Positions 4,929-26,601 of a stretch of DNA of 64,000 nucleotides are shown here, piece after piece. This stretch comes from Escherichia coli (GTDB lineage Bacteria > Pseudomonadota > Gammaproteobacteria > Enterobacterales > Enterobacteriaceae): assembly GCF_003018255.1 (NCBI RefSeq), contig NZ_CP027440.1. The stretch is one strand, 5' to 3'. Both the position numbers and the translations under genes were made by a program. The notes under the pieces are model-generated. The model saw nothing but the letters and a program-made list of their open reading frames with translations. It was not told the origin of the DNA and ran no database searches. Every line of letters starts with the position of its first letter. Within the stretch, counting starts at the first letter, position 1.

Positions 4929-5969
4929 TTACATCGCCAGATTTGTTGAGTTAGTGATCGCCGCCGCATTCTGGCGCGTTGCGACAGAATGGCGACGCAC
5001 TAACGTCGGCATAAAACAGTGGCTGGCACGCGGATCAATATTGCCTGCTGCCCCCTGCAAGGCCAGTTCGGTGGCTAATTTAGCCATTGAAGCAATGGGA
5101 TAACGCACAGTCGTTAATTGCGGGTCGGTGTAACGGGCGATGGGAATATCATCGAAACCGATGATGGAGAGATGTAACGGAATCGCAATGCCATTATCTT
5201 TTAATGCTGTCAGTGCGCCAGCGGCCATATTGTCGTTATAAGCAAATACAGCGGTAAGTTGTAGATTGCGCCCCAGCAGTTCAACCATCGCCGCCTCACC
5301 GCCCGGCATGTCCGGCGTACCTGTGCCAATCCAGCTTTCCGGCGGAATAATATCCTGCTCTTTCAACGCACTCATCCAGCCTGCTTTACGCATGGCGTCA
5401 TCTTCAATGCCGTGACTGGAAGAAAGATAACCAATACGTTGATGACCGTTATTCAGCAACATGCGCGTCGCCATTCGGGCACCGCTGAGATTATCCAGGC
5501 AAACGCAACGATGGGCGTACCCCGGCACAACGCGGTTGATTAACACCATACCAGGAATGTTATCCATAAATTGTGCCAGTTCATCATCACTCAATGCTTT
5601 TGAGTGAACAATCAACGCATTACACCGCTGGCGAATTAACACCTCAATGGCGTGACGCTCTTTTTCCGCTTCATGATAGCTATTGCCTATTAGCACGTAT
5701 TTCTGATGCTGCTGGGCGACCAAATCCACCGCTTTTACCAGCGCACCAAAAAACGCATCAGAAACGTCCATCACCACCACGCCAATGGTATCGCTAACCT
5801 GAGTTGCCAGCGCCTGGGCATTGGCGTTTGGCCGATAATCCAGCTCACTCACGGCTTTCATTACTGCTTCACGCGTGTCGGCACTGACCAGCGTGCTGTT
5901 ATTGAGCACCCGGGAAACCGTTGCCACAGAGACGCCAGCCTGACGCGCTACATCACGAATGGTGATCAT
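4929..5969 (-). CDS. galS: LacI-family repressor GalS (mgl/gal isorepressor)
   Basis: N-terminal LacI HTH ([23 protein letters not shown]). Start trimmed to the ATG giving 346 aa; the ORF-track start is a GTG two codons upstream. Confidence 0.9.
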
Positions 5970-14004: not shown

Positions 14005-15054
14005 ATGACGAATATCACCTTACAGAAACAACATCGTACACTGTGGCATTTTATTCCGGGGTTAGCCCTGAGTGCAGTTATCACCGGGGTCGCCCTGTGG
14101 GGTGGTTCCATTCCCGCGGTTGCGGGTGCCGGGTTTAGTGCCCTCACCCTCGCAATCTTGTTGGGGATGGTTTTAGGCAACACCATTTACCCGCACATCT
14201 GGAAAAGCTGTGACGGTGGTGTGCTGTTTGCCAAGCAATATTTATTACGTCTGGGTATCATTCTTTATGGCTTCCGTCTGACGTTCTCGCAAATTGCCGA
14301 TGTCGGTATCAGTGGGATCATCATTGACGTGTTGACGCTGTCCAGTACCTTCCTGCTGGCTTGCTTCCTGGGGCAGAAAGTGTTTGGTCTGGATAAGCAC
14401 ACCAGCTGGTTGATCGGTGCCGGTAGCAGTATCTGTGGTGCTGCCGCGGTACTGGCGACTGAGCCGGTAGTAAAAGCAGAAGCCAGTAAAGTAACCGTGG
14501 CTGTTGCAACCGTTGTTATCTTCGGGACCGTGGCGATTTTCCTCTACCCGGCGATATATCCGCTGATGTCTCAATGGTTTAGTCCGGAAACTTTCGGTAT
14601 CTACATTGGTTCTACTGTGCACGAAGTGGCGCAGGTGGTGGCGGCAGGTCATGCCATCAGCCCGGATGCAGAAAACGCAGCAGTTATTTCCAAAATGCTG
14701 CGCGTGATGATGCTGGCTCCGTTCCTCATCCTGCTGGCGGCGCGTGTTAAACAGCTGTCTGGGGCGAACAGCGGCGAGAAAAGCAAAATCACTATTCCGT
14801 GGTTTGCCATCTTGTTCATCGTCGTTGCCATCTTTAACTCGTTCCACCTGTTACCGCAGAGCGTGGTGAACATGCTGGTAACGCTGGATACCTTCCTGCT
14901 GGCAATGGCGATGGCGGCGCTGGGTCTGACCACTCACGTCAGCGCGCTGAAAAAAGCCGGGGCGAAACCTCTGCTGATGGCACTGGTACTGTTTGCCTGG
15001 CTGATTGTTGGTGGTGGTGCGATTAACTATGTGATTCAAAGCGTCATCGCATAA
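14005..15054 (+). CDS. yeiH: UPF0324 inner-membrane protein
   Basis: 349-aa polytopic membrane protein divergent from its LysR regulator gene yeiE. Confidence 0.88.
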
Positions 15055-15068
15055 ACCACTACATCTTG

Positions 15069-15120
15069 CTCCTGTTAACCCGCTATCATTACCGTTTTCC
15101 TCCAGCGGGTTTAACAGGAG
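15069..15120 (+). promoter_or_regulatory. Long inverted repeat (16/17-bp arms) whose 3' arm contains the nfo Shine-Dalgarno AGGAG
   Basis: CTCCTGTTAACCCGCT ... AGCGGGTTTAACAGGAG. Distal arm ends 8 nt before the nfo ATG. Confidence 0.45.
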
Positions 15121-15127
15121 TCCTCGC

Positions 15128-15985
15128 ATGAAATACATTGGAGCGCACGTTAGTGCTGCTGGCGGTCTGGCAAATGCCGCAATTCGCGCCGCCGAAATCG
15201 ACGCAACCGCGTTTGCCTTGTTCACCAAAAACCAACGTCAGTGGCGTGCCGCACCGCTCACGACGCAAACCATCGATGAATTCAAAGCCGCCTGTGAAAA
15301 ATATCACTACACATCGGCGCAAATTCTTCCCCACGACAGTTATCTGATTAACCTCGGACATCCGGTTGCTGAAGCTCTGGAAAAATCGCGCGATGCCTTT
15401 ATAGATGAAATGCAGCGTTGCGAACAGCTGGGGCTTTCTTTGCTCAACTTCCACCCTGGCAGCCATCTGATGCAGATTTCAGAAGAGGATTGCCTTGCGC
15501 GTATTGCCGAATCCATCAACATTGCGCTGGATAAAACTCAAGGTGTCACCGCGGTGATTGAAAACACCGCCGGTCAGGGCAGTAACTTAGGGTTTAAATT
15601 CGAACATCTCGCAGCGATTATCGACGGCGTGGAAGATAAATCCCGCGTCGGCGTCTGCATTGATACCTGCCATGCTTTCGCTGCCGGGTATGATTTGCGT
15701 ACTCCTGCCGAATGCGAGAAAACGTTCGCTGATTTTGCCCGTATTGTAGGCTTTAAGTATCTGCGCGGGATGCACCTCAACGATGCGAAAAGCACCTTTG
15801 GCAGCCGCGTTGACCGTCATCATAGCCTCGGCGAAGGCAATATCGGTCATGATGCGTTCCGCTGGATCATGCAAGACGACCGTTTCGACGGCATTCCGCT
15901 GATCCTTGAAACCATCAACCCGGATATCTGGGCAGAAGAGATCGCCTGGCTGAAAGCGCAACAAACTGAAAAAGCGGTGGCCTGA
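15128..15985 (+). CDS. nfo: Endonuclease IV (AP endonuclease)
   Basis: 285 aa, matches E. coli Nfo. Confidence 0.95.
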
Positions 15986-15988
15986 TCG

Positions 15989-17077
15989 ATGAACGACAGG
16001 GAAAAGCAGATTCTTAAAATTTTACGGCGTAACCCGCTGATTCAACAGAACGAAATTGCGGATATGCTGCAAATCAGCCGTTCGCGCGTTGCGGCGCATA
16101 TTATGGATTTAATGCGCAAAGGCCGGATTAAAGGCAAAGGTTACATTCTCACCGAGCAGGAATACTGCGTAGTGGTGGGGACAATCAATATGGATATTCG
16201 CGGGATGGCGGATATCCGTTACCCGCAAGCGGCTTCTCATCCCGGTACCATTCATTGCTCGGCAGGCGGCGTTGGACGCAATATCGCCCACAATCTGGCG
16301 CTGTTAGGCCGCGACGTCCATTTGCTTTCAGTGATTGGCGATGACTTTTATGGCGAAATGCTCCTGGAAGAAACGCGCCGCGCCGGCGTGAATGTCTCCG
16401 GCTGCGTTCGTTTACATGGCCAAAGCACATCGACGTATCTGGCAATTGCCAATCGAGACGATCAAACCGTGCTGGCGATTAACGATACCCATCTGCTGGA
16501 TCAGTTGACACCGCAACTACTGAACGGGTCGCGCGATTTACTTCGTCATGCGGGCGTGGTACTTGCTGATTGTAACCTGACAGCCGAGGCGCTGGAATGG
16601 GTCTTTACCCTCGCTGATGAAATCCCGGTGTTTGTCGATACCGTTTCAGAATTCAAAGCGGGCAAAATCAAACACTGGCTGGCGCATATTCACACCCTGA
16701 AACCCACTTTACCGGAGCTGGAAATTTTATGGGGACAGGCGATCACCAGCGATGCTGACCGTAATGCCGCAGTGAATGCGTTGCATCAGCAAGGCGTTCA
16801 GCAACTGTTTGTTTATTTGCCCGATGAGTCAGTTTATTGCAGCGAAAAGGATGGAGAGCAATTTTTGCTGACAGCGCCAGCGCATACGACAGTAGACAGT
16901 TTTGGTGCTGACGATGGTTTTATGGCGGGCCTGGTATATAGCTTTCTGGAGGGAAACAATTTCCGTGACAGCGCCCGTTTTGCGATGGCCTGCGCGGCAA
17001 TTTCACGCGCCAGCGGCAGCTTAAACAACCCTACCCTGTCTGCCGATAACGCGCTTTCATTAGTGCCGATGGTGTAA
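15989..17077 (+). CDS. yeiI: Putative PfkB-family carbohydrate/nucleoside kinase with N-terminal HTH domain
   Basis: 362 aa. N-terminal winged-helix-like segment followed by a PfkB kinase core (GGVGRNIAHNLALLG) paralogous to PsuK. Starts 3 nt after the nfo stop. Confidence 0.85.
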   Translation: MNDREKQILKILRRNPLIQQNEIADMLQISRSRVAAHIMDLMRKGRIKGKGYILTEQEYCVVVGTINMDIRGMADIRYPQAASHPGTIHCSAGGVGRNIAHNLALLGRDVHLLSVIGDDFYGEMLLEETRRAGVNVSGCVRLHGQSTSTYLAIANRDDQTVLAINDTHLLDQLTPQLLNGSRDLLRHAGVVLADCNLTAEALEWVFTLADEIPVFVDTVSEFKAGKIKHWLAHIHTLKPTLPELEILWGQAITSDADRNAAVNALHQQGVQQLFVYLPDESVYCSEKDGEQFLLTAPAHTTVDSFGADDGFMAGLVYSFLEGNNFRDSARFAMACAAISRASGSLNNPTLSADNALSLVPMV

Positions 17078-17084
17078 CAATGTT

Positions 17085-17118
17085 GCCGGATTCGACGCTT
17101 GACTACATCTTATCCGGC
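17085..17118. repeat. REP-like palindrome (GCCGGA ... ATCCGGC) immediately 3' of nupX
   Basis: Inverted GCCGGAT cores between convergent yeiI and nupX. Confidence 0.5.
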
Positions 17119-17132
17119 TCATAACTCGCGCA

Positions 17133-18383
17133 CTACGCTAAGCCAATAAAGAATCCTGCAATGGTTGCACTCATCAGGTTAGAAAGTGTCGCCGCCGCCA
17201 GCGCGCGTAAACCAAGCTGGGCGATTTCCGGTGCACGGTGTGGCGCAACCGCAGAAAACGCCCCCACCACCACCCCGATAGAACCAAAGTTAGCGAAACC
17301 GCACAACGCGAAGGAAATAATCGCCACGGTTTTAGCATCCAGAGTGCCAGCCGTTTGCAGATAGGGTGAGAAATTGAGGTAAGCGACAAATTCATTTATT
17401 GCCAGTTTCTGTCCAATCAAACTCCCGGCAAGATTCGCATCACTCCAGTCAACACCCATTACCCACGCCAGTGGGGCCAGCAGGTAACCTAAAATGGACT
17501 CCAGCGAGGCATGTTCAAAGCCAAACCAGCCGCCAACGCCGCCGATAATACCGTTAATTAACGCAATGATGGCGACAAATGCCATCACTACTGTCGCCAC
17601 ACCTGCGGCGATTTTCAGCCCGGTCATTGCCCCTGTCGCAGCGGCTTCAATAATGCTTTTTGGCGGTGTTTCGGTGAAAGAGAGGTTATTAAAGGAAACC
17701 TGCGAAGATTCTGTTGCCGGGCTTAACAGGCGGGCAAACAAGATCCCGCCGGGGATCGCCATTAACGATGCCGCCAGCAGATATTCCACAGGCACGCCCA
17801 GTGCGGCGTAACCAATCATTGTCGAACCAGCAATCGAGGCCATCCCGCTACAAATCGCTGTAAATAATTCATTGCGATTCAGACGATTGATAAAGGGTTT
17901 GACGATTGCCGGAATTTCGTTTTGCCCGAGGAAAATGGTAGTGACCGCGACGAATGACTCGATCTTGCTGATATTCAATGCTTTCTGGAAGATACCGCCG
18001 AGAATGCGAATTAAGATCCCCATCACACCGATGTAGTAGAGAATACTCACCAGTGCTGTAACGAAGATAATTGCCGGTAATACCCTGAAACCAAAGATAA
18101 ATCCTGCGCCATCAAATAAGGTATCCATTTTTGGTCCGACCAGAGAACCAAAGATAAATGCGCTACCTGCATCGCTGTACGCCATCACTTTATGCACGCC
18201 AAAAGCGACTTTTTCTGCGACCCAACGCCCTGGTGGTAACCAAAGCATAATGCCGCCAATCACGACCTGTAACACTAACGCCGCGCCAACGGTACGCAGG
18301 CTGATCTTCTTCTTGTTTACTGACAGCAAAAACGCAATTGCCAGCAATACCACCATTCCCAGAACACTTCTCATGACATCCAT
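17133..18383 (-). CDS. nupX: NupC-family nucleoside permease
   Basis: 416 aa, paralog of PsuT in this window. Confidence 0.9.
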   Translation of the reverse strand: MDVMRSVLGMVVLLAIAFLLSVNKKKISLRTVGAALVLQVVIGGIMLWLPPGRWVAEKVAFGVHKVMAYSDAGSAFIFGSLVGPKMDTLFDGAGFIFGFRVLPAIIFVTALVSILYYIGVMGILIRILGGIFQKALNISKIESFVAVTTIFLGQNEIPAIVKPFINRLNRNELFTAICSGMASIAGSTMIGYAALGVPVEYLLAASLMAIPGGILFARLLSPATESSQVSFNNLSFTETPPKSIIEAAATGAMTGLKIAAGVATVVMAFVAIIALINGIIGGVGGWFGFEHASLESILGYLLAPLAWVMGVDWSDANLAGSLIGQKLAINEFVAYLNFSPYLQTAGTLDAKTVAIISFALCGFANFGSIGVVVGAFSAVAPHRAPEIAQLGLRALAAATLSNLMSATIAGFFIGLA

Positions 18384-18408
18384 AGTTATTATCTCTTCAT
18401 GTCATTTT

Positions 18409-18436
18409 GGGCGACGGCTTTCTGCCCATCAGAAAT
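18409..18436 (-). other. Conserved 28-nt leader motif, copy 1 (GGGCGACGGCTTTCTGCCCATCAGAAAT; contains TTTCTG-N5-CAGAAA)
   Basis: Near-identical sequence recurs upstream of psuT at 21637-21664. Confidence 0.4.
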
Positions 18437-18482
18437 AGCCGGGCCTGCATCTTGCGATACTGTCCCGGCTTGTTATCAACAC

Positions 18483-19424
18483 TTAATGGGTTTTGATGTA
18501 GCCGCGCACGCACTCTTCGACTAATCCCCAGAACCAGTCGGTATCAATAGTGATGCCGACTTTGGTATTGGCGGGCTTGCCAAGAACGCCCAGCTCGTCG
18601 CAGACCGTACGCCCGTAGCAAGGGCCGCTGTTAACGTCCACTTCGACGTACATCTCCTGGGTTTTAATGCCATCAGGGTTAATCAGATAACCGATGCAGG
18701 TGGCGTCATGCACCGGGCCGCCAGCCAGGCCGTAGTTTTCGAACTGCGTTTTTAGAGTGAAATTCATGATGTCGCTGAACAGCTCTCCGGCGGGGCCGCC
18801 TACCCTTTCCATCCGAGCAATCACGTCCGGGGTGCAAACAGTCTGGTTGGTGAGATCGAGGCCCATCATCACCAACGGAACGCCGGAGGTGAACACCACG
18901 CGTGCGGCTTCCGGGTCAGCAAAGATGTTGAACTCGGCAGATGGGGTGAAGTTGCCAGTACCGTAAGCGCCGCCCATCAGCACAATTTCACGGATTTTCG
19001 GCAGGATCGCGGGTTGCATACGCATTGCCACCGCGATATTTGAAAGTGGGCCAACCGGCACCAGAGTGATATCGCCATCGCTTGCCATCAGGGTATCGAT
19101 GATATATTTCACCGCATGAGTGCTTTCTGCCTGGCGGGTCAGCGGCTCGAATACCGGGCCATCCAGTCCGGTTTCACCGTGAATATTATCGGCAACGATT
19201 TGTTGACGCATAATGGGCTGTGGCATCCCCGCATAAACCGGAACATTAATCTCCAGTTTCTGGCAAACATTCAGGCCATTAATTAATGTTTTATCAAGCG
19301 TCTGATTACCCGCCACAATGGTGATACCTAATAAATCTATTGCCGGATGTTTCGCTGCCATCATTATGGCAATAGCATCATCATGACCCGGATCACAATC
19401 CAGAATAATTTTTCTCTTTTCCAT
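18483..19424 (-). CDS. rihB: Pyrimidine-specific ribonucleoside hydrolase
   Basis: 313 aa, N-terminal DxDxxxDD nucleoside hydrolase motif ([13 protein letters not shown]). Confidence 0.93.
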
Positions 19425-19592
19425 TGTTTATTTCCTCTGTTTCCAGTTGCGTTATTTTTTCTACAGCAAAGAAAATTCGACCGGGCCGATGATTGAATCT
19501 TAACAACAGCGTAAGTATGCTAAATATGAGAAATCTCATAGCGGATAAACATCGTGAAAGAAATCCACAATAATGACCTTAAGCAGCAATTG

Positions 19593-20252
19593 ATGAGTGA
19601 ATCTGCGTTTAAGGATTGCTTTTCAACGGATGTTTCAGCCGATACGCGGCTGTTTCATTTTTTAGCGCGTGACTACATTGTGCAGGAAGGGCAACAGCCG
19701 TCATGGCTGTTTTATCTGACGCGAGGCCGTGCCAGGCTTTACGCCACGCTTGCTAATGGTCGCGTGTCGCTGATCGATTTCTTTGCCGCTCCCTGTTTTA
19801 TTGGCGAGATTGAGTTAATCGACAAAGACCATGAACCGCGTGCGGTGCAGGCTATTGAAGAGTGTTGGTGCCTTGCGCTCCCTATGAAACATTACCGCCC
19901 GCTGTTATTAAACGACACGCTATTTTTACGAAAACTCTGCGTCACCTTAAGTCATAAAAATTATCGTAATATTGTTTCTTTAACTCAGAATCAATCATTT
20001 CCGTTAGTGAATCGCCTGGCAGCTTTTATATTACTCTCGCAGGAAGGTGATCTTTATCACGAAAAGCATACGCAAGCGGCAGAGTATTTAGGTGTTTCTT
20101 ATCGACATCTTTTATATGTTCTCGCGCAATTCATTCACGACGGTTTATTAATTAAAAGCAAGAAAGGGTATCTCATTAAAAACAGAAAGCAGTTGTCAGG
20201 ACTGGCACTGGAGATGGACCCGGAAAATAAATTCTCAGGGATGATGCAGTAA
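19593..20252 (+). CDS. yeiL: CRP/FNR-family transcriptional regulator
   Basis: Start trimmed to the ATG giving 219 aa (MSESAF...). cNMP-binding-like fold plus C-terminal HTH. Confidence 0.85.
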
Positions 20253-20275
20253 AAATTATTTGCAATAGAGCGATT

Positions 20276-20311
20276 GCCGGATGTGACGCTTAATAAGCGC
20301 GTACATCCGGC
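20276..20311. repeat. REP-like palindrome (GCCGGATGT ... ACATCCGGC) immediately 3' of psuT
   Basis: 9-bp inverted arms between convergent yeiL and psuT. Confidence 0.55.
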
Positions 20312-20319
20312 AATGACAC

Positions 20320-21570
20320 TCAAGCTAAACCAATAAAGAACCCGGCAATGGTCGCGCTCATCAGGTTGGAAAGCGTTGCTGCTGCCAGCGCCCGTAAACC
20401 AAGCTGGGCGATTTCCGGTGCGCGTTTTGGCGAAATAGCCGAAAATGCCCCAACGACAACACCGATAGAACCAAAGTTAGCAAAACCACAAAGCGCAAAG
20501 GAGATAATCGCAATGGTTTTCACTTCCAGCGTGCCGCCCGTTTGCAGGTATGGGGAGAAACTCAGGTAAGCGACGAATTCGTTAATCGCCAGTTTCTGCC
20601 CAATCAGGCTACCCGCAAGATTGGCATCACTCCAGTCCACACCCATGATCCACGCCAGCGGTGCCAGCACATAGCCAAAAATACTTTCCAGAGAGGCATT
20701 GGCGAAACCAAACCAGCCGCCAATTCCGCCGATAATGCCGTTGATCAGCGCAATAATTGCGACAAACGCCATTACAACCGTCGCCACACCAGCGGCGATT
20801 TTCAGCCCGGTCATCGCACCGCTCGCCGCCGCTTCGATAAAGCTTTTTGGCGGCGTTTCGCTGAACGACAGATTTTCAAATGTCACCTGCGAAGGCTCGG
20901 TGGCTGGGCTAAGAATACGTGCAAACAAAATACCACCAGGGATCGCCATCAGCGATGCCGCTAACAGGTAGTCAATTGGTACGCCCATTCCGGCATAACC
21001 AATCATCATCGAACCAGCAATGGACGCCATCCCGCTACAAATTGCGGTAAACAACTCGTTGCGATTCATGCGATCGATAAACGGTTTAACGATCGCCGGG
21101 ATCTCATTTTGCCCGAGGAAAATAGTGGTAACCGCAACAAAAGATTCGATTTTGCTGATGTTGAGGGCTTTCTGGAAAATGCTGCCAAGGATGCGAATCA
21201 GCAGCCCCATCACGCCAATGTAGTACAGCAGACTGATGAGCGCAGTGACGAAGATAATCGCCGGAAGTACGCGAAAGGCGAAGATAAAACCCGCACCGTC
21301 AAAGAGGACATCCATTTTCGGCCCGACCAGCGAACCAAAAATGAAGGCGCTACCGGCATCACTGTAAGACATCACTTTATGAACGCCTAATGCCGCCTGT
21401 TCTACCGCCCATTTTCCTGGTGGAAAATAGAGCATGATTCCGCCAATGGCGATTTGTAGCAGCAACGCGGCTCCAACCGTGCGCAAACTGATGCTCTTTT
21501 TATTCACTGACAACAGAAATGCTATTGCCAGTAACACCACCATCCCCACAACACTTCTCATTATATCCAT
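20320..21570 (-). CDS. psuT: NupC-family transporter, putative pseudouridine permease
   Basis: 416 aa, full-length paralog of NupX, last gene of psuK-psuG-psuT. Confidence 0.9.
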   Translation of the reverse strand: MDIMRSVVGMVVLLAIAFLLSVNKKSISLRTVGAALLLQIAIGGIMLYFPPGKWAVEQAALGVHKVMSYSDAGSAFIFGSLVGPKMDVLFDGAGFIFAFRVLPAIIFVTALISLLYYIGVMGLLIRILGSIFQKALNISKIESFVAVTTIFLGQNEIPAIVKPFIDRMNRNELFTAICSGMASIAGSMMIGYAGMGVPIDYLLAASLMAIPGGILFARILSPATEPSQVTFENLSFSETPPKSFIEAAASGAMTGLKIAAGVATVVMAFVAIIALINGIIGGIGGWFGFANASLESIFGYVLAPLAWIMGVDWSDANLAGSLIGQKLAINEFVAYLSFSPYLQTGGTLEVKTIAIISFALCGFANFGSIGVVVGAFSAISPKRAPEIAQLGLRALAAATLSNLMSATIAGFFIGLA

Positions 21571-21636
21571 ATTGATTTTCCCTTCATGCCAGTAAACCCG
21601 GCGTCAGCGCCAGGTTTTGGTATGCTTGATGAGTAC

Positions 21637-21664
21637 GGGCGACGGCTTTCTGCCCGTCAGAAAT
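21637..21664 (-). other. Conserved 28-nt leader motif, copy 2 (GGGCGACGGCTTTCTGCCCGTCAGAAAT)
   Basis: Abuts the psuG stop codon and lies upstream of psuT. One mismatch to copy 1. Confidence 0.4.
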
Positions 21665-22602
21665 TAACCCGCGAGACGCTGGTATTCTTTGGCTATTTCA
21701 CTCGCCAGGATGGCGTTGTTGAACACCAGCTGGATGTTGGATTTCAGGCTGTCACCGCCGGTCAACTCAGCAACGCGCGCCAGCAGGAATGGCGTACTTT
21801 CTTTACCAATAACACCCTGCGCTTCAGCTTCAGCTACCGCCTGATCGATCGCCGCATTGATAGTGTGTTCCGGCATAGCAAACTGTTCCGGAATCGGGTT
21901 CGCTACCACGAGGCCACCGTTCAGCCCGCTTTGCCATTTCACCGCCATTGCACGGGCAATTTCGCTGGCGCTGTCGAGACGAATGCTCACGTCAAACGGG
22001 CTGGTGCGGCAGAAAAACGCAGGCAGCGCTTTGGTCTGATAGCCAATTAGCGGTACACCGAAAGTTTCTAAATATTCGGTAGTTAAGCCTAAATCGAGAA
22101 TAGATTTCGCCCCGGCACAAACGACGGTGACATTGGTGTGCGCCAGTTCTTGCAAATCGGCAGAAATATCGAAGGTATGTTCCGCCCCGCGATGCACACC
22201 ACCAATTCCCCCGGTGGCAAATACTTTAATTCCGGCAAGCGCCGCAATAATCATCGTTGAAGCAACGGTGGTTGCACCATTTTTTCCGGCGGCAACAACA
22301 AAAGGTAAATCGCGACGACTAACTTTGGTCACGTTATGCCCTTCACGACCCAGCAATTCAATTTCTTCTTTGCTTAAACCCACTTTCATCACGCCGCCAA
22401 TAATGGCGATAGTGGCAGGTACAGCGCCCTGTTTACGAATAGTTTCTTCAACTTCAATTGCGGTCTGGGCATTTTGTGGGAACGGCATCCCGTGAGAAAT
22501 AATGGTCGATTCCAGCGCCACAACCGGTTTTTTGTTTTTTAAAGCGTCCTGCACTTCCGGGGAAATTTGTAATAATTCAGGGGAAATTTTTAATTCAGAC
22601 AT
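21664..22602 (-). CDS. psuG: Pseudouridine-5'-phosphate glycosidase
   Basis: 312 aa, matches YeiN/PsuG. Confidence 0.92.
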   Translation of the reverse strand: MSELKISPELLQISPEVQDALKNKKPVVALESTIISHGMPFPQNAQTAIEVEETIRKQGAVPATIAIIGGVMKVGLSKEEIELLGREGHNVTKVSRRDLPFVVAAGKNGATTVASTMIIAALAGIKVFATGGIGGVHRGAEHTFDISADLQELAHTNVTVVCAGAKSILDLGLTTEYLETFGVPLIGYQTKALPAFFCRTSPFDVSIRLDSASEIARAMAVKWQSGLNGGLVVANPIPEQFAMPEHTINAAIDQAVAEAEAQGVIGKESTPFLLARVAELTGGDSLKSNIQLVFNNAILASEIAKEYQRLAG

Positions 22603-23531
22603 TCTGCGTTCTCCACTAACGATATAACGTTGGCAATCGATAAATCGGGGTTATTGGTGTATTCACAGGAGAGCGCCATTGACGAACATCCCTGTGCGAA
22701 ACGAACAGATTCGGCAAACGGCATTCCGTCTACCCAACACGAAGCAAGTCCCGCCATCATGGCATCGCCCGCTCCGGTAACATTAATGACATTGGTTTTG
22801 ATCGGCGCAGACCAACCACTTTCACCGCTGATATCACTGTAATAAACGCCGTCGCCGCCCATGCTCAATACCAGTCGGTTCAGGCCATGTTGATGGAACC
22901 AGGCAGCAACTTTTGCCACATCTTCACGCCCTGACAAAGCAATCCCACTCAGGGTTTCCGCTTCAAGGCGGTTTGGCTTGAGAGTGTGGATTTGATTTAG
23001 ACGGTCGCGCACTTTGACACATTTCCACGCGGAAACAGGATCGACAAATACGGGTACGTTGGCGGCATTATCCAGAATCCATGCCAGTGCCTCTTCACTG
23101 ATATTACAGTCCGCGACAATGACCTTTGCCCTCTGAATAAATTCACCGTGCTGTGCGAGATATTCAGCTGTAATAGCGTTGCTAATATTCATGTCATTTA
23201 TAGCAACCAGCATTTCACCGGTATTATCGAGTAATGATAAATAGCTCGACGTATTTTCTCCCGGCACAATCAGGCATTTATCGACATAAACACCAGATTG
23301 ATTGGTTTGCGTTAGCAGCGATTGACCATAAAAATCACTGCCTACGGCGCTCAGTAGCCAGGCTTTATTCCCCAGCAACGCCAGGTTTTGTGCAATATTG
23401 CGCCCTACTCCACCAGGCGTAAACTTTATTTTACCTGGATTTGAATCCGCATAATTTAATGATTCATGTGAATATCCGGCGACATCAATATTCGCCGAAC
23501 CTATAATTACGACATAATCCTTTTCGCGCAT
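22590..23531 (-). CDS. psuK: Pseudouridine kinase (PfkB family)
   Basis: 313 aa, PfkB motifs GGVGRNIAQNLALLG and GAGDAMMAG. Overlaps psuG by 13 nt. Confidence 0.92.
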   Translation of the reverse strand: MREKDYVVIIGSANIDVAGYSHESLNYADSNPGKIKFTPGGVGRNIAQNLALLGNKAWLLSAVGSDFYGQSLLTQTNQSGVYVDKCLIVPGENTSSYLSLLDNTGEMLVAINDMNISNAITAEYLAQHGEFIQRAKVIVADCNISEEALAWILDNAANVPVFVDPVSAWKCVKVRDRLNQIHTLKPNRLEAETLSGIALSGREDVAKVAAWFHQHGLNRLVLSMGGDGVYYSDISGESGWSAPIKTNVINVTGAGDAMMAGLASCWVDGMPFAESVRFAQGCSSMALSCEYTNNPDLSIANVISLVENAECLN

Positions 23532-23598
23532 AGCACGTCCTCTGGTAAAAAATTACCAACCCTGTCAATCCACAAGAATATAGATACTGCAAAGACGG

Positions 23599-23634
23599 TT
23601 TAAACATGTGTTCATATTTAAACATGTGCTCATA
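23599..23634. repeat. Perfect tandem 18-bp direct repeat (TTTAAACATGTG[T/C]TCATA x2) upstream of psuK
   Basis: Two adjacent units differing at one position, 68-103 bp upstream of the psuK ATG. A partial third copy follows. Confidence 0.6.
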
Positions 23635-23771
23635 GTATGCATGTTTTACGTAAAGTAAATTACCGCCAGAGATGCAAAATGGGCAGATTTGAGCAGGCTC
23701 ACAAAACGCGATTAAATGCCTGAATTATAAAAACGGGGAATTTGTGACGGAATGCACAGAACAGGAACACT

Positions 23772-23797
23772 AAAAAAGGGCAGAAATTAATCTGCCC
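23772..23797 (-). terminator. Rho-independent terminator (GGGCAGA-ttaatt-TCTGCCC plus U-run on minus strand) distal to fruA
   Basis: Stem-loop followed by six U on the minus-strand transcript. Confidence 0.6.
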
Positions 23798-23913
23798 TTG
23801 AGGAAATAACCTTAGTGTTTGATGAAAGTTTCAGGTTTCCACTAAAAGATAAAACCATTTAAATTCATAAAATTACATTCACAAACCGGTCATTCTCTTT
23901 GCGCGCATCAAAT

Positions 23914-23944
23914 GTTCCAGGGCAGGAAATTTCTGCCCTGGAAC
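23914..23944 (-). terminator. 12-bp perfect stem-loop immediately 3' of fruA (GTTCCAGGGCAG ... CTGCCCTGGAAC)
   Basis: Near-perfect 31-nt palindrome 11 nt past the fruA stop. U-tract is weak. Confidence 0.45.
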
Positions 23945-23954
23945 ACACCTTTTA

Positions 23955-25646
23955 TTACGCTGCTTTTGCTACTGCGTCCACTTCCGGACGTTTCAGGAAG
24001 GCATAGGCCAGACCCGCCACCAGCGTACCGGCAATAATGGCTACCAGGTAACCCAGTACCGGCGTAATAGCGCCAGGGATCAGCAGAACAAACAGACCAC
24101 CGTGCGGTGCCATCAGTTTCGCACCAATCGCCATTGAGATTGCGCCAGTCAGCGCCCCACCAACGATACAACACGGCAGCACACGCATCGGATCACGAGC
24201 AGCAAACGGAATTGCACCTTCCGAAATAAAGCACAGACCAAGAACCAGAGCGGCTTTGCCACCTTCCTGCTGCGCTTTGTCGAATTTGCGACGCGCCACC
24301 ATTGTTGCCAGACCCATTGCCAGCGGTGGCACCATACCTGCCGCCATAATCGCCGCCATCGGGCCATAGGTTTGAGTACTCAGCAGACCCACACCGAATG
24401 CGTACGCTGCTTTATTTACCGGACCGCCCATGTCAGTACACATCATGCCACCGAGGATCGCCCCCAGCAGAACCGCATTCGCAGTCCCCATGGTCTGCAG
24501 CCAGTGAGTCAACCCTTCGAGAATGCCAGCAACCGGTTTACCGATCAGGTAGATCATCGCCAGACCGACCACCAGACTGGAAATTAGCGGAATGATCAGG
24601 ATCGGTTTCAGCGCCTCCATACTCTGTGGCAGTTTCAGTTGCGTACTGATTAACTTCGCAATGTAACCAGCCAGGAAGCCCGCAATAATACCCCCAATGA
24701 AGCCAGAACCGGTGCTGACCGCCAGCATACCCCCAATCAGACCCGGCGTGAGACCCGGACGATCGGCAATGGAGAAGGCAATGTAACCTGCCAGTACCGG
24801 CACCATCAGCGCAAAGGCTGAACCACCACCAATCTGCATCAGCGCCGCTGCCAACGTACCCGGCTCTTTAAACGCTTCGATACCAAAAGCAAAAGAAAGC
24901 GCGATACACAGACCACCTGCAACGACCATCGGCAGCATGTAAGAGACGCCCGTCAGCAAGTGACGGTAAGCGCCTGCACCCTCTTTCTTACCTTCAGTGG
25001 TCGCTGTTTGAGCTTTGCCCGCCGGTTCATACGGCGTTGCTTCAGCAACCGCTTTATCCAGTTCCTGCGCGGTTTTCTTCAGCGCCAGACCGGTAGAGGT
25101 GCGATACATCGGTTTACCAGCAAATTTCGCCAGATCCACTTCGATATCTGCCGCCACAATCACCAGATCCGCTGCGGCTACTTCTTCAGGGGTGATCGCA
25201 TTACCCGCGCCAACAGAACCACGGGTTTCAACTTTCACCCACCAGCCACGTTTTTTCGCTTCGGTTTCAATGGCTTCAGCCGCCATAAATGTGTGTGCTA
25301 CGCCAGTCGGGCAAGCTGTCACCGCAACTACGCGTTTCGGACCGCTGGTGGCAACTGGTGCTGTCGCAGCGACCGGTGCAGTGTAAGGTTTCGCATGGCC
25401 TTTGGCTTCACTCAGGAACAGCTCAGGGTGCGCAACTGCCCGGGAAATATCGCCCAGCCAGACATTTTTACCGTTCAGCGCGCTGTCGTTCGGGATGGAA
25501 TCACCGAGAACAATCGCCATTTCAGCGTCGTTCGGATTGTCGATGATTTCCAGTTTTGCTTTTCGCGCCGCCGCGCCCAGCAGGGTCTTCGCCATATAGG
25601 CGCGTGCCTGACCGAGATTAGCGTCAATAATCAGCAGCGTTTTCAT
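23955..25646 (-). CDS. fruA: Fructose PTS enzyme IIB'BC
   Basis: 563 aa, matches E. coli FruA. Confidence 0.95.
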   Translation of the reverse strand: MKTLLIIDANLGQARAYMAKTLLGAAARKAKLEIIDNPNDAEMAIVLGDSIPNDSALNGKNVWLGDISRAVAHPELFLSEAKGHAKPYTAPVAATAPVATSGPKRVVAVTACPTGVAHTFMAAEAIETEAKKRGWWVKVETRGSVGAGNAITPEEVAAADLVIVAADIEVDLAKFAGKPMYRTSTGLALKKTAQELDKAVAEATPYEPAGKAQTATTEGKKEGAGAYRHLLTGVSYMLPMVVAGGLCIALSFAFGIEAFKEPGTLAAALMQIGGGSAFALMVPVLAGYIAFSIADRPGLTPGLIGGMLAVSTGSGFIGGIIAGFLAGYIAKLISTQLKLPQSMEALKPILIIPLISSLVVGLAMIYLIGKPVAGILEGLTHWLQTMGTANAVLLGAILGGMMCTDMGGPVNKAAYAFGVGLLSTQTYGPMAAIMAAGMVPPLAMGLATMVARRKFDKAQQEGGKAALVLGLCFISEGAIPFAARDPMRVLPCCIVGGALTGAISMAIGAKLMAPHGGLFVLLIPGAITPVLGYLVAIIAGTLVAGLAYAFLKRPEVDAVAKAA

Positions 25647-25662
25647 TATGCCTCTCCTGCTG

Positions 25663-26601
25663 TCAGTTAAAAGGTTGTAAGTCGACGCGCGCCATCATTG
25701 CGGCCAACTGCGGACGATCGGTAATACCCACATTGCTTTGACTTACCGCCAGGGCTGCAACAGCTGTCGCCAGACGCAGTGTGTGTTCACTGGATTCACG
25801 CATCAGCAAGCCATAAATCAGGCCACCAACCATAGAATCCCCTGCGCCAACGGTGCTTACGACATCGACTGACGGTGGTTTGGCGATCCATTCGCCGGAG
25901 GCATTAACCCAAAGCGCGCCTTCGGCACCCAGTGAAATAACGACATGCGCGATACCTTGTTCACGCAGCGCATGCGCAGCTTCAATCACATCTTTCATTT
26001 CAGGCAGTTTACGGCCTGCCCAGATTTCCAGCTCGCGGCGGTTAGGTTTCACCAGCCACGGTGCCGCTTTCAAACCTGCTACTAACGCTTCACGGCTACT
26101 ATCAAAGATAATGCAAGGACACTGACTACGCAGGCGAGTCATCCAGTCGGTGAACGCTTCCGGGCTGACGCCTGACGGTAAGCTTCCGCTGACACAGACC
26201 ATATCGAACTGACCGAGCCAGCTCAGAGAATCAGTCACAAAGCGTTCCCAGTCGGCGGGGGTAACGTCAAAACCCGAGAAGTTGAAGTCGGTCACTTCGC
26301 CGTCTTTTTCCGTCAGCTTAACGTTAATTCGGGTGCGCCCCTGTACAACCTGGAAACGGTTGGCAATGCCCAGCTCGCTGAACAGTTGCTGAAAACCATC
26401 CTGATTGTCTTTACCGAGGAAGCCACCAACGGTGACATCAATTCCCAGGTCTTTTAATACTTTGGCCACGTTGATGCCTTTACCCGCCGCATGCAGACCG
26501 GTGGTTTTCACCAGGTTCACTTCGCCGCGTTCAATTTCCGGGCAGAAACCAACAAGGTCATAAGCCGGATTAAGGGTGATAGTAGCAACACGTCTGCTCA
26601 T
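25663..26601 (-). CDS. fruK: 1-phosphofructokinase
   Basis: 312 aa PfkB-family kinase, matches FruK. Confidence 0.95.
   Translation of the reverse strand: MSRRVATITLNPAYDLVGFCPEIERGEVNLVKTTGLHAAGKGINVAKVLKDLGIDVTVGGFLGKDNQDGFQQLFSELGIANRFQVVQGRTRINVKLTEKDGEVTDFNFSGFDVTPADWERFVTDSLSWLGQFDMVCVSGSLPSGVSPEAFTDWMTRLRSQCPCIIFDSSREALVAGLKAAPWLVKPNRRELEIWAGRKLPEMKDVIEAAHALREQGIAHVVISLGAEGALWVNASGEWIAKPPSVDVVSTVGAGDSMVGGLIYGLLMRESSEHTLRLATAVAALAVSQSNVGITDRPQLAAMMARVDLQPFN

Follow-up and report, generated by a model that had tools for sequence, protein, structure and literature searches.

A 28-nucleotide (nt) motif occurs twice in a 64,000-nt stretch of Escherichia coli DNA (contig NZ_CP027440.1; the whole of this stretch is hereafter the window), once in the leader of the transporter gene nupX and once in that of its paralogue psuT. 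The conserved core of this motif is a hairpin on the sense strand, here called hp1, which is an unannotated, covariation-supported messenger RNA (mRNA) stem-loop of a kind common in operons and restricted to one clade, the core Enterobacteriaceae. The evidence leans towards the motif being the Escherichia version of a short mRNA-leader stem-loop that acts in cis on the expression of the nupX/psuT subfamily of CNT transporters and whose pairing has been selected, a reading that we favour with some reserve. The two copies of the motif and of hp1 are placed as follows.

18409-18436 (plus-strand numbering): first copy of the 28-mer, GGGCGACGGCTTTCTGCCCATCAGAAAT, which corresponds to hp1 minus its last base, plus an 8-nt 5' flank, AUUUCUGA.
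21637-21664 (plus-strand numbering): second copy of the 28-mer; its last base doubles as the first letter of the psuG stop codon in reverse complement (TTA at 21664-21666).
18408-18428, minus strand: hp1 of the nupX leader, RNA 5'-UGGGC AGAAAGCCGUC GCCCA-3', with an 11-nt loop closed by a stem of 5 base pairs (bp), placed 24 nt upstream of the nupX AUG.
21635-21657, minus strand: hp1 of the psuT leader, RNA 5'-ACGGGC AGAAAGCCGUC GCCCGU-3', with a 6-bp stem and an 11-nt loop.

On the gene (minus) strand the motif reads AUUUCUGA[U/C]GGGCAGAAAGCCGUCGCCC. The copies differ by a single mismatch, A to G at 21656 (27/28), in agreement with the preliminary description of this DNA, which had reported an almost exact recurrence at 21637-21664. 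This sole difference (U against C in the RNA) is matched by A against G just 3' of the 28-mer. The same genome thus holds a U-A pair in one copy and a C-G pair in the other, which argues that complementarity is read and not base identity. The nupX hairpin folds at -8.3 kcal/mol when taken alone, shows a mean pair probability of 0.89 in the full leader and scores 38 bits with a covariance model, while the psuT hairpin folds at -11.1 kcal/mol and scores 40.8 bits, its 5-bp core beginning 7 nt past the psuG stop and ending 65 nt before the psuT AUG.

The conservation of hp1 was followed in 21 leaders from Escherichia (coli and albertii), Citrobacter, Superficieibacter, Buttiauxella, Leclercia, Kluyvera, Klebsiella, Salmonella, Enterobacter, Entomohabitans and Dryocola/H11S18. 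Several of the genomes sampled hold both the psuKGT and the rihB-nupX modules and others hold one; most of the orthologous leaders were obtained via single-protein look-ups, and the species sample is small. Pair statistics are based on a gap-free alignment of 33 columns with 20 distinct leaders, orthologues and paralogues, from 11 genera. The helix kept inside the 28-mer consists of YRGGY, exactly 11 nt, and GCCYR, that is, GGGC/GCCC with one or two covarying pairs, and its five core pairs are formed in all 100 of 100 cells. Of the 20 leaders, 14 have C-G at pair 7-27, 4 have U-A and 2 have U·G; at pair 8-26, 18 have G-C and 2 have A-U; the closing pair, C-G in 18, is U·G in the other 2. Beyond the core, the sixth pair is A-U in 11 leaders, G-C in 3, G·U in one and unpaired in 5, and an additional pair across a bulged base appears as G-C, A-U or G·U. 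The family as a whole shows a stem rich in G+C with 5-6 pairs (up to 12), to which a bulged A and then one more G-C pair are usually added, and a loop fixed at 11 nt, of which the 3' half (GCGGUC or GCCGUC) is moderately conserved.

The double changes are of the types C-G to U-A and G-C to A-U, in either direction, and none of 500 shuffles and no slid control reaches the observed covariation score or number of doubly changed cells. Moreover, RNAalifold predicts the hp1 helix on unfitted MAFFT alignments of psuT-type and nupX-type leaders alike. The core includes 4 wobble cells and no A·C cell. The pattern used for leader extraction permitted the non-pairing combinations C..A and A..C, neither of which occurred; as a control, C..A was found at the corresponding pair in 36 of the 79 chance metagenome matches to the extraction pattern, among the matches listed. 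These matches derive from a metagenome scan with YGGGCAGNNNGCGGTCGCCCR that served as a control only, and since 79 of its 80 listed loci were chance matches in G+C-rich contigs, it is uninformative on other contexts of hp1. In E. albertii and in the psuT copy of E. coli MS7163, a change of AC to GU in the 5' arm leaves the helix paired on the sense strand only, through G·U and U·G. Mean pairwise identity amounts to 86% in the stem, 64% in the loop, 40% in the flanks and 53% at third codon positions, the 5' flank of the 28-mer being among the sequences not conserved beyond Escherichia.

In some lineages the hairpin has been rebuilt. The nupX leaders of Leclercia and Enterobacter have the loop turned into a perfect 12-bp hairpin (-18 kcal/mol), and in the Entomohabitans psuT leader an unrelated 15-bp hairpin takes the place of hp1 ahead of a conserved AUAUCAGGCAUAC tail. 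Such replacements fit a structural role and do not fit an operator that is read as sequence. With the 33-column covariance model, only two sites are found in the window, at 38 and 41 bits, the next best scoring 13.8. In 738 kb of fetched loci the model recovers all nupX and psuT leaders except that of Entomohabitans psuT, always on the sense strand, and a simple hairpin scan agrees with this distribution. No hp1 was found by the model in 69 more distant CNT-family loci, and Rfam 15, searched with positions 15000-26000, returned no match at E<=1 overlapping either spacer. As is expected of structured cis-acting mRNA elements in general, hp1 is a compensated, strand-specific helix kept at a conserved position by one gene family.

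A conserved RNA structure of the 5' untranslated region had been named as a fallback in the preliminary description. The structure is now supported by covariation, as a helix (GGGC/GCCC with an 11-nt loop) different from the one then indicated; the orthologous leaders of other genera keep the core and do not keep the TTTCTG-N5-CAGAAA dyad on which that description had centred. The GAYGG/CCGUC helix favoured by the single-sequence minimum free energy (MFE) structure of the psuT leader was also rejected, as it is paired in 69% of cells, shows no covariation and has one pair broken in 15 of 20 leaders.

With regard to other taxa, the psuG-psuT spacers of Serratia, Hafnia and 'Klebsiella sp. BIGb0407' (about 175 nt; loci L007-L010, about 2870-2960) are without hp1; what they conserve is another hairpin, CCUGAAAGGUGG…CCUUUCAGG, with a conserved CUCCUUAAGUUUUA and an A-rich stretch ahead of it.

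The genes of the region, with identities fixed by K-12 annotation, and yeiL are the following.

17133-18383, minus strand: nupX.
18483-19424, minus strand: rihB.
19554-20252, plus strand: yeiL, between psuT and rihB.
20320-21570, minus strand: psuT.
21664-22602, minus strand: psuG.
22590-23531, minus strand: psuK.

The 99-nt rihB-nupX spacer holds the first copy of the motif, which stops 25 nt short of the nupX AUG, and the 93-nt psuG-psuT spacer holds the second, directly abutting the psuG stop codon. Both copies thus stand in intercistronic spacers within putative operons whose sense strand is the minus strand, and because they are placed between the rihB stop and the nupX ATG and between the psuG stop and the psuT ATG, they belong to intercistronic leaders and not to free-standing promoter regions. 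The nine codons that had been read as GRRLSA(H/R)QK in two plus-strand open reading frames are indeed the translation of the repeat, in an antisense reading only that carries no information.

The motif is rare. No further match with up to 3 mismatches is present in the 64 kb, nor in 100 shuffles, and a 36-nt query finds a median of 2 and a maximum of 3 places per genome in 5,424 E. coli genomes, all of them in the rihB-nupX and psuG-psuT spacers, so the 28-mer is not a dispersed repeat. The possibility of a generic repeat family at many unrelated loci, against which the preliminary description had warned, is thereby answered, and the many dispersed copies per genome that characterise repetitive extragenic palindromic (REP) sequences and bacterial interspersed mosaic elements, enterobacterial repetitive intergenic consensus sequences and boxC are not seen. 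A stretch of about 6.6 kb around the motif is matched in 5,425 of 5,426 complete E. coli genomes.

The nupX and psuT genes appear as a segmental duplication whose alignment extends from about 10 nt upstream of the motif across the whole gene. Their nucleotide identity is 79.5%, and 53.6% at third codon positions, and E. coli nupX is equidistant from all orthologues and paralogues examined. Given this third-codon identity, which marks the genes as old duplicates, 27 matches in 28 positions are not neutral (P(>=27/28) = 6.6e-7), which accords with the earlier impression that the conservation is selective. The accompanying statement that the surrounding intergenic sequence is otherwise diverged stands only in part: pairwise alignment shows that a block next to the ribosome-binding site (RBS), CATGAAGrGAwAAT, is also common to both spacers, and that the main difference is an indel of about 41 nt, which holds a second hairpin of the psuT leader, and not scattered substitutions.

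Side observations on the nupX leader bear on its history. In Salmonella and Kluyvera, GGTTAAC is found just 5' of the nupX hp1 (loci L086 and L084, about 5925-5937), and this string corresponds to the last codon and stop of psuG (GGT TAA) in the psuT leader, window 21664-21672, which indicates that nupX is a copy of psuT together with the end of psuG, inserted behind rihB. In MS7163, a B2 urinary isolate, nupX is annotated as a 66-nt stub (locus L093, 3658-3723; compare window nupX, 17133-18383) with hp1 and the leader remaining, and 981 E. coli records at 80-90% identity to the 6.6-kb query suggest that nupX deletion is common.

The opposite view is that the motif has no function of its own, the 27/28 identity being due to a short, recent gene-conversion tract or to hitch-hiking and the hairpin being a decaying relic, for instance of an old terminator. 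We consider this unlikely. It would account for the loop states AGA and GCC and the TTTCTGA flank, which the E. coli copies share and which the orthologues of other genera lack, for paralogous hairpins that are far more different in Kluyvera, Enterobacter and Entomohabitans, and for a star-like gene tree with some within-genome clustering at the nucleotide level; moreover, in the O145 strain RM10425-C1, the only one read, a U to G stem change leaves 4 pairs in the nupX copy. Nevertheless, E. coli nupX keeps the nupX-type U-A pair, so its hairpin is not just the psuT copy written over it, and no conversion signal shows in the coding sequence next to it: along the coding sequence, where gene conversion was looked for and rejected, no stretch brings E. 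coli nupX distinctly nearer to E. coli psuT. Furthermore, the stem is 86% identical with compensatory changes, to be compared with the third codons and flanks given above.

The dyad TTTCTG-N5-CAGAAA is exact at both 28-mer sites and found nowhere else within the window, and it had been proposed to be the operator of a dimeric regulator, with the CRP/FNR-family protein YeiL as the candidate. Neither proposal is supported. As a helix or as a dyad it is specific to Escherichia, with 58% of cells paired in the 20 leaders, not much above the slid controls. It is broken in E. albertii (TTTCCG), Citrobacter (AATTTCTCGGGCAGAAT), Kluyvera (ACTTCACGGGCAGTCT), Klebsiella and others, and, with changes in both arms, in the nupX-side copy of E. 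coli MS7163, the only B2 strain read. As to YeiL, the hp1 core persists upstream of psuT in six psuKGT loci that are without the yeiL-rihB-nupX module (E. albertii, three of Citrobacter, K. michiganensis and Enterobacter FS01; as read in the fetched flanks), where psuT is directly followed by yeiI. In all fetched rihB-nupX loci yeiL is divergent from rihB-nupX and moves with it, including H11S18 and Dryocola, which have it at another chromosomal site.

A broader version, in which the 28-mer would be bound as duplex DNA by a dimeric factor (YeiL, the helix-turn-helix (HTH) kinase YeiI or the LysR-type YeiE) controlling internal promoters of the transporter genes, seems distinctly unlikely. The E. 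coli copies do hold a perfect 6-N5-6 dyad, the conserved core is itself a dyad (GGGC-N11-GCCC, extended to a perfect 13+13 palindrome in Leclercia) and regulator genes are nearby; RegulonDB, as cited in PMC9308461, gives YeiL a single known target, its own promoter, which leaves room for further ones. Against this, the 6-N5-6 dyad is not conserved, conservation of the core is asymmetric, with the 3' half of the loop retained and its 5' half free to vary, wobble pairs are present while A·C is not, and the Entomohabitans psuT hairpin is an unrelated replacement. Besides, no regulator accompanies every hp1: yeiL is missing from the six psuKGT loci, yeiI from seven nupX-only loci, and yeiE from H11S18 and Dryocola. 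Consensus scanning for sigma-70 and sigma-54 promoters finds no promoter-like site in either spacer, and manual checks of hexamers gave poor matches.

The comparison with known CRP/FNR operators leads to the same result. The E. coli 28-mers resemble them in holding an inverted repeat and in having a gene of that family, yeiL, between the copies. However, CRP (TGTGA-N6-TCACA) and FNR (TTGAT-N4-ATCAA) sites are conserved inverted repeats with 5-bp half-sites spaced by N4 or N6, at or just upstream of a promoter, whereas the 28-mer has an odd N5 spacer and an unconserved dyad, is intercistronic, and occurs without yeiL in the fetched flanks of the six psuKGT loci. A role of the 28-mer as the YeiL operator is therefore not supported. 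A second dyad in the region has a geometry that fits the family better.

19526-19539: ATGAGATTTCTCAT (ATGAG-ATTT-CTCAT), in the divergent promoter region of yeiL and rihB, a 5-N4-5 dyad of FNR-like geometry, present once in the window.

In sequence ATGAGATTTCTCAT is quite unlike the 28-mer, and it is invariant in eight genera (E. coli, Buttiauxella, Leclercia, Kluyvera, K. spallanzanii, Salmonella, Enterobacter and H11S18). Judged from its sequence, it is the more plausible candidate operator for YeiL, which would then regulate itself, or for another CRP/FNR-type factor. The search for the YeiL operator is thus redirected to this dyad; no paper with a published YeiL consensus was found.

The further elements of the two leaders are listed below.

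18384-18402, minus strand: RBS-proximal block ACAUGAAGAGAUAAUAACU, common by pairwise alignment to the psuT leader at 21571-21589.
18437-18470, minus strand: hp0, AGCCGGG…CCCGGCU, directly after rihB and followed by AUUUCU, from the MFE structure.
21594-21617, minus strand: hp2, AAACCUGGCG-CUGA-CGCCGGGUUU, GC-rich and bordered by an A-tract and by a short U-tract (terminator-like), lying in the interval from hp1 to the psuT RBS.
21618-21634, minus strand: linker …AUCAAGCAUACCAAAA… between hp1 and hp2, unpaired and A/C-rich, AUCAnnnAUACCrAAA in the alignments of most genera.

The order of a psuT-type leader is the psuG stop, a gap of 7-10 nt, hp1, the A/C-rich tail, hp2 and the RBS. Across these leaders hp2 has the form AAACCUGGCG-N4-CGCCGGGUUU with 3-4 U and folds at -11 to -15 kcal/mol; it is a consensus helix in 10 psuT-type leaders and is absent from the E. 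coli nupX leader. The hp2 partly fits an intrinsic terminator, and the terminator scan did not flag it (only 3 U). Many nupX leaders have lost hp2 through a deletion between CUGG repeats, which leaves hp1 as the sole conserved helix, and in the lineage of K-12 and the window a further loss of about 13 nt has removed the sixth pair of hp1. At the place of hp0, a hairpin is found in most rihB-nupX spacers, with a sequence that varies among genera. The distance from hp1 to the AUG ranges from 24 to 67 nt across leaders, so that hp1 does not directly cover the RBS. As a side observation, the nupX leader is polymorphic in E. coli: another strain (locus L002, 6139-6201) has a longer, Salmonella-like tail, AUAACGGGAUCAGACCUGACAUG, and a 6-bp hp1, in place of window 18384-18408.

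The layout of the psuT-type leaders calls to mind translation-coupled attenuators, of which rph-pyrE and pyrBI are the examples among E. coli pyrimidine genes. A ribosome finishing psuG would melt hp1 and so decide on transcription or translation into psuT, a proposal that we regard as highly improbable. In its favour, the hp1 stem lies 7-10 nt past the psuG stop in all psuT-type leaders, within the reach of a terminating ribosome as deduced from its footprint size, the operon is pyrimidine-related, and hp2 is terminator-like. The resemblance to rph-pyrE and pyrBI, a hairpin a few nt past the upstream stop codon of a pyrimidine-related operon, is limited to psuT-type leaders; by contrast, hp1 has neither a U-tract nor an alternative pairing, and the spacing to the stop codon is not kept in nupX-type leaders, where 40-70 nt separate hp1 from the rihB stop and hp2 is frequently absent. 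Moreover, with the 5' arm of hp1 masked, hp2 continues to fold at -11 to -15 kcal/mol, and the putative 2:3 duplex has no advantage over shuffled sequence. A trp-like attenuator with 1:2, 2:3 and 3:4 pairings was rejected on the same two findings.

Nucleoside transporters are a class often under riboswitch control, and a sensor RNA is the remaining alternative. Here hp1 and the A/C-rich tail, with hp2 in psuT-type leaders, would bind a pyrimidine nucleoside (pseudouridine, uridine or cytidine) or a dedicated RNA-binding protein and thereby switch transporter expression; this is rated quite improbable. The 11-nt loop is invariant in length, its 3' half and the AUCAnnnAUACCrAAA tail are conserved above neutral, and the succession of hairpin, tail, terminator-like hairpin and Shine-Dalgarno (SD) sequence is that of an expression platform. 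Nonetheless, the Rfam search gave no match even at E<=1, manual inspection revealed no covariation between loop and tail or loop and hp2, and masking the 5' arm of hp1 brings out no alternative pairing in competition with hp2. The hp2 and the tail are missing from many nupX leaders, and a loop that is rewritten in Leclercia and Enterobacter, or a hairpin that is replaced in Entomohabitans, is unlike an aptamer. Riboswitches present invariant ligand-contacting nucleotides and a multi-helix or pseudoknotted fold, and hp1 is a single helix. In outline only, hp1 is like the preQ1-I riboswitch (RF00522), with its stem of 5-6 bp, its loop of about 11 nt, its A/C-rich 3' tail and the expression platform that follows; it differs in having no Rfam match, no pseudoknot covariation and a loop that varies and is replaced in some lineages. 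That hp1 and the tail form a very small, undescribed riboregulator (a nucleoside riboswitch or the target of an RNA-binding protein) controlling both CNT transporters of the pseudouridine and pyrimidine-nucleoside modules of Enterobacteriaceae is accordingly seen as very unlikely.

Several other candidates were tried and rejected. Pairing of the pyrimidine-rich 5' flank with the RBS in an anti-SD manner gives duplex energies equal to those of shuffled controls (mean z = +0.2). Pseudoknots between the loop and the tail or hp2 are suggested by GGUC/GACC and UGUC/GACA pairs, which on manual inspection are inconsistent among genera. With regard to a leader peptide or upstream open reading frame, an AUG on the 5' arm of some nupX leaders is replaced by ACG or GUG in other leaders, neither frames nor stops are conserved, and in Kluyvera a stop codon falls inside the loop. 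An intrinsic terminator would match the G+C-rich stem of hp1, which has an 11-nt loop, is followed by GUACUCAU or AAAAUGAC with no U-tract, and was not flagged by the scan. Resemblances to the RfaH ops element and to ChiX targets amount to 5-8 shared and unconserved nt and were treated as chance.

Under the favoured reading of a cis-acting stem-loop, hp1 would have accompanied the gene in the psuT duplication that produced nupX and would have been retained by selection on base pairing, and it may set, at the RNA level, the amount of the transporter relative to the upstream gene for a catabolic enzyme. The most likely route, chosen by elimination and by analogy, would be a role as a determinant of mRNA processing or stability. 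For instance, hp1 could shield the 5' end of the transporter segment once an endonuclease has cut the AU-rich stretch directly upstream, it could block 3' exonucleases on behalf of the upstream segment, or it could do both, and hp2 might add partial termination.

The mRNA stem-loops that set differential expression within operons include the REP hairpins of malE-malF and the intercistronic hairpins of puf and pap. In common with such hairpins, hp1 is G+C-rich, lies between a gene for a catabolic or periplasmic protein and one for a membrane transporter, depends on structure more than on sequence, so that the hairpin can be swapped, and requires no U-tract. It differs from them in that it does not come from a genome-wide repeat family, with 2 copies per genome, travels with the downstream gene and not the upstream one, and conserves the length and part of the sequence of its loop.

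A number of points weigh against this reading. The choice of a processing or stability role by elimination and analogy is itself one of them, and co-transcription of rihB with nupX and of psuG with psuT is assumed. The invariant length of the loop and the conservation of its 3' half above neutral are not explained by a purely structural role, so a protein- or ligand-binding role stays alive at low probability. The covariation stems from perhaps 3-5 independent events on a star-like, poorly resolved tree, and hp1 appears in the full-leader MFE structure of only 12 of the 21 sequences, some of which include upstream coding sequence. In addition, the E. coli copies are more alike than the family-wide constraint demands, which means that a short gene-conversion tract may inflate the 27/28 figure. 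Term-seq data from LB and M63 media, in which these genes are silent, list no 3' end for the genes of the nupX and psuT loci. [quoted passage not shown] The published Hfq-CLASH tables do contain chimeras of CpxQ with psuT and with nupX and of CyaR with nupX; every one of these maps to a G-rich coding segment and none to a leader (PMC7213987 supplements).

If functional, hp1 would give nupX and psuT, which encode two poorly understood E. coli transporters, their first assigned regulatory feature, and would offer a handle on the uncoupling of transporter from enzymes in the psuKGT and rihB-nupX units; the scale is modest, one small hairpin confined to the core Enterobacteriaceae. Of the two proteins, NupX is a weak uridine/cytidine carrier, and PsuT has no measured substrate, its role being inferred from operon context (PMC11241209).

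Other features of the psu region were observed in passing. A direct repeat, CACATGTTTAAA, is found at window 23599-23627 in two copies, whose starts are 17 nt apart (5 nt between them), about 70-95 nt upstream of the psuK start, and is a possible candidate operator for a regulator of the psuKGT operon. In the fruA-psuK spacer, two hairpins with GGGCAG/CUGCCC arms occupy window 23776-23799 and 23913-23945, the first after fruA and the second about 110 nt further on, with a full U-tract; these hairpins could bracket a short transcript, and a reported Rho-termination region of K-12, 2259533(-), maps beside the second. Finally, the product of yeiI (window 15989-17077) joins an HTH_24 domain to a PfkB kinase that shares about 40% identity with PsuK, and the gene is convergent to psuT (or nupX) in every psuKGT locus examined (L084, L087, L088, L090, L092 and L003-L006), which makes YeiI a candidate ligand-sensing regulator of pseudouridine catabolism.

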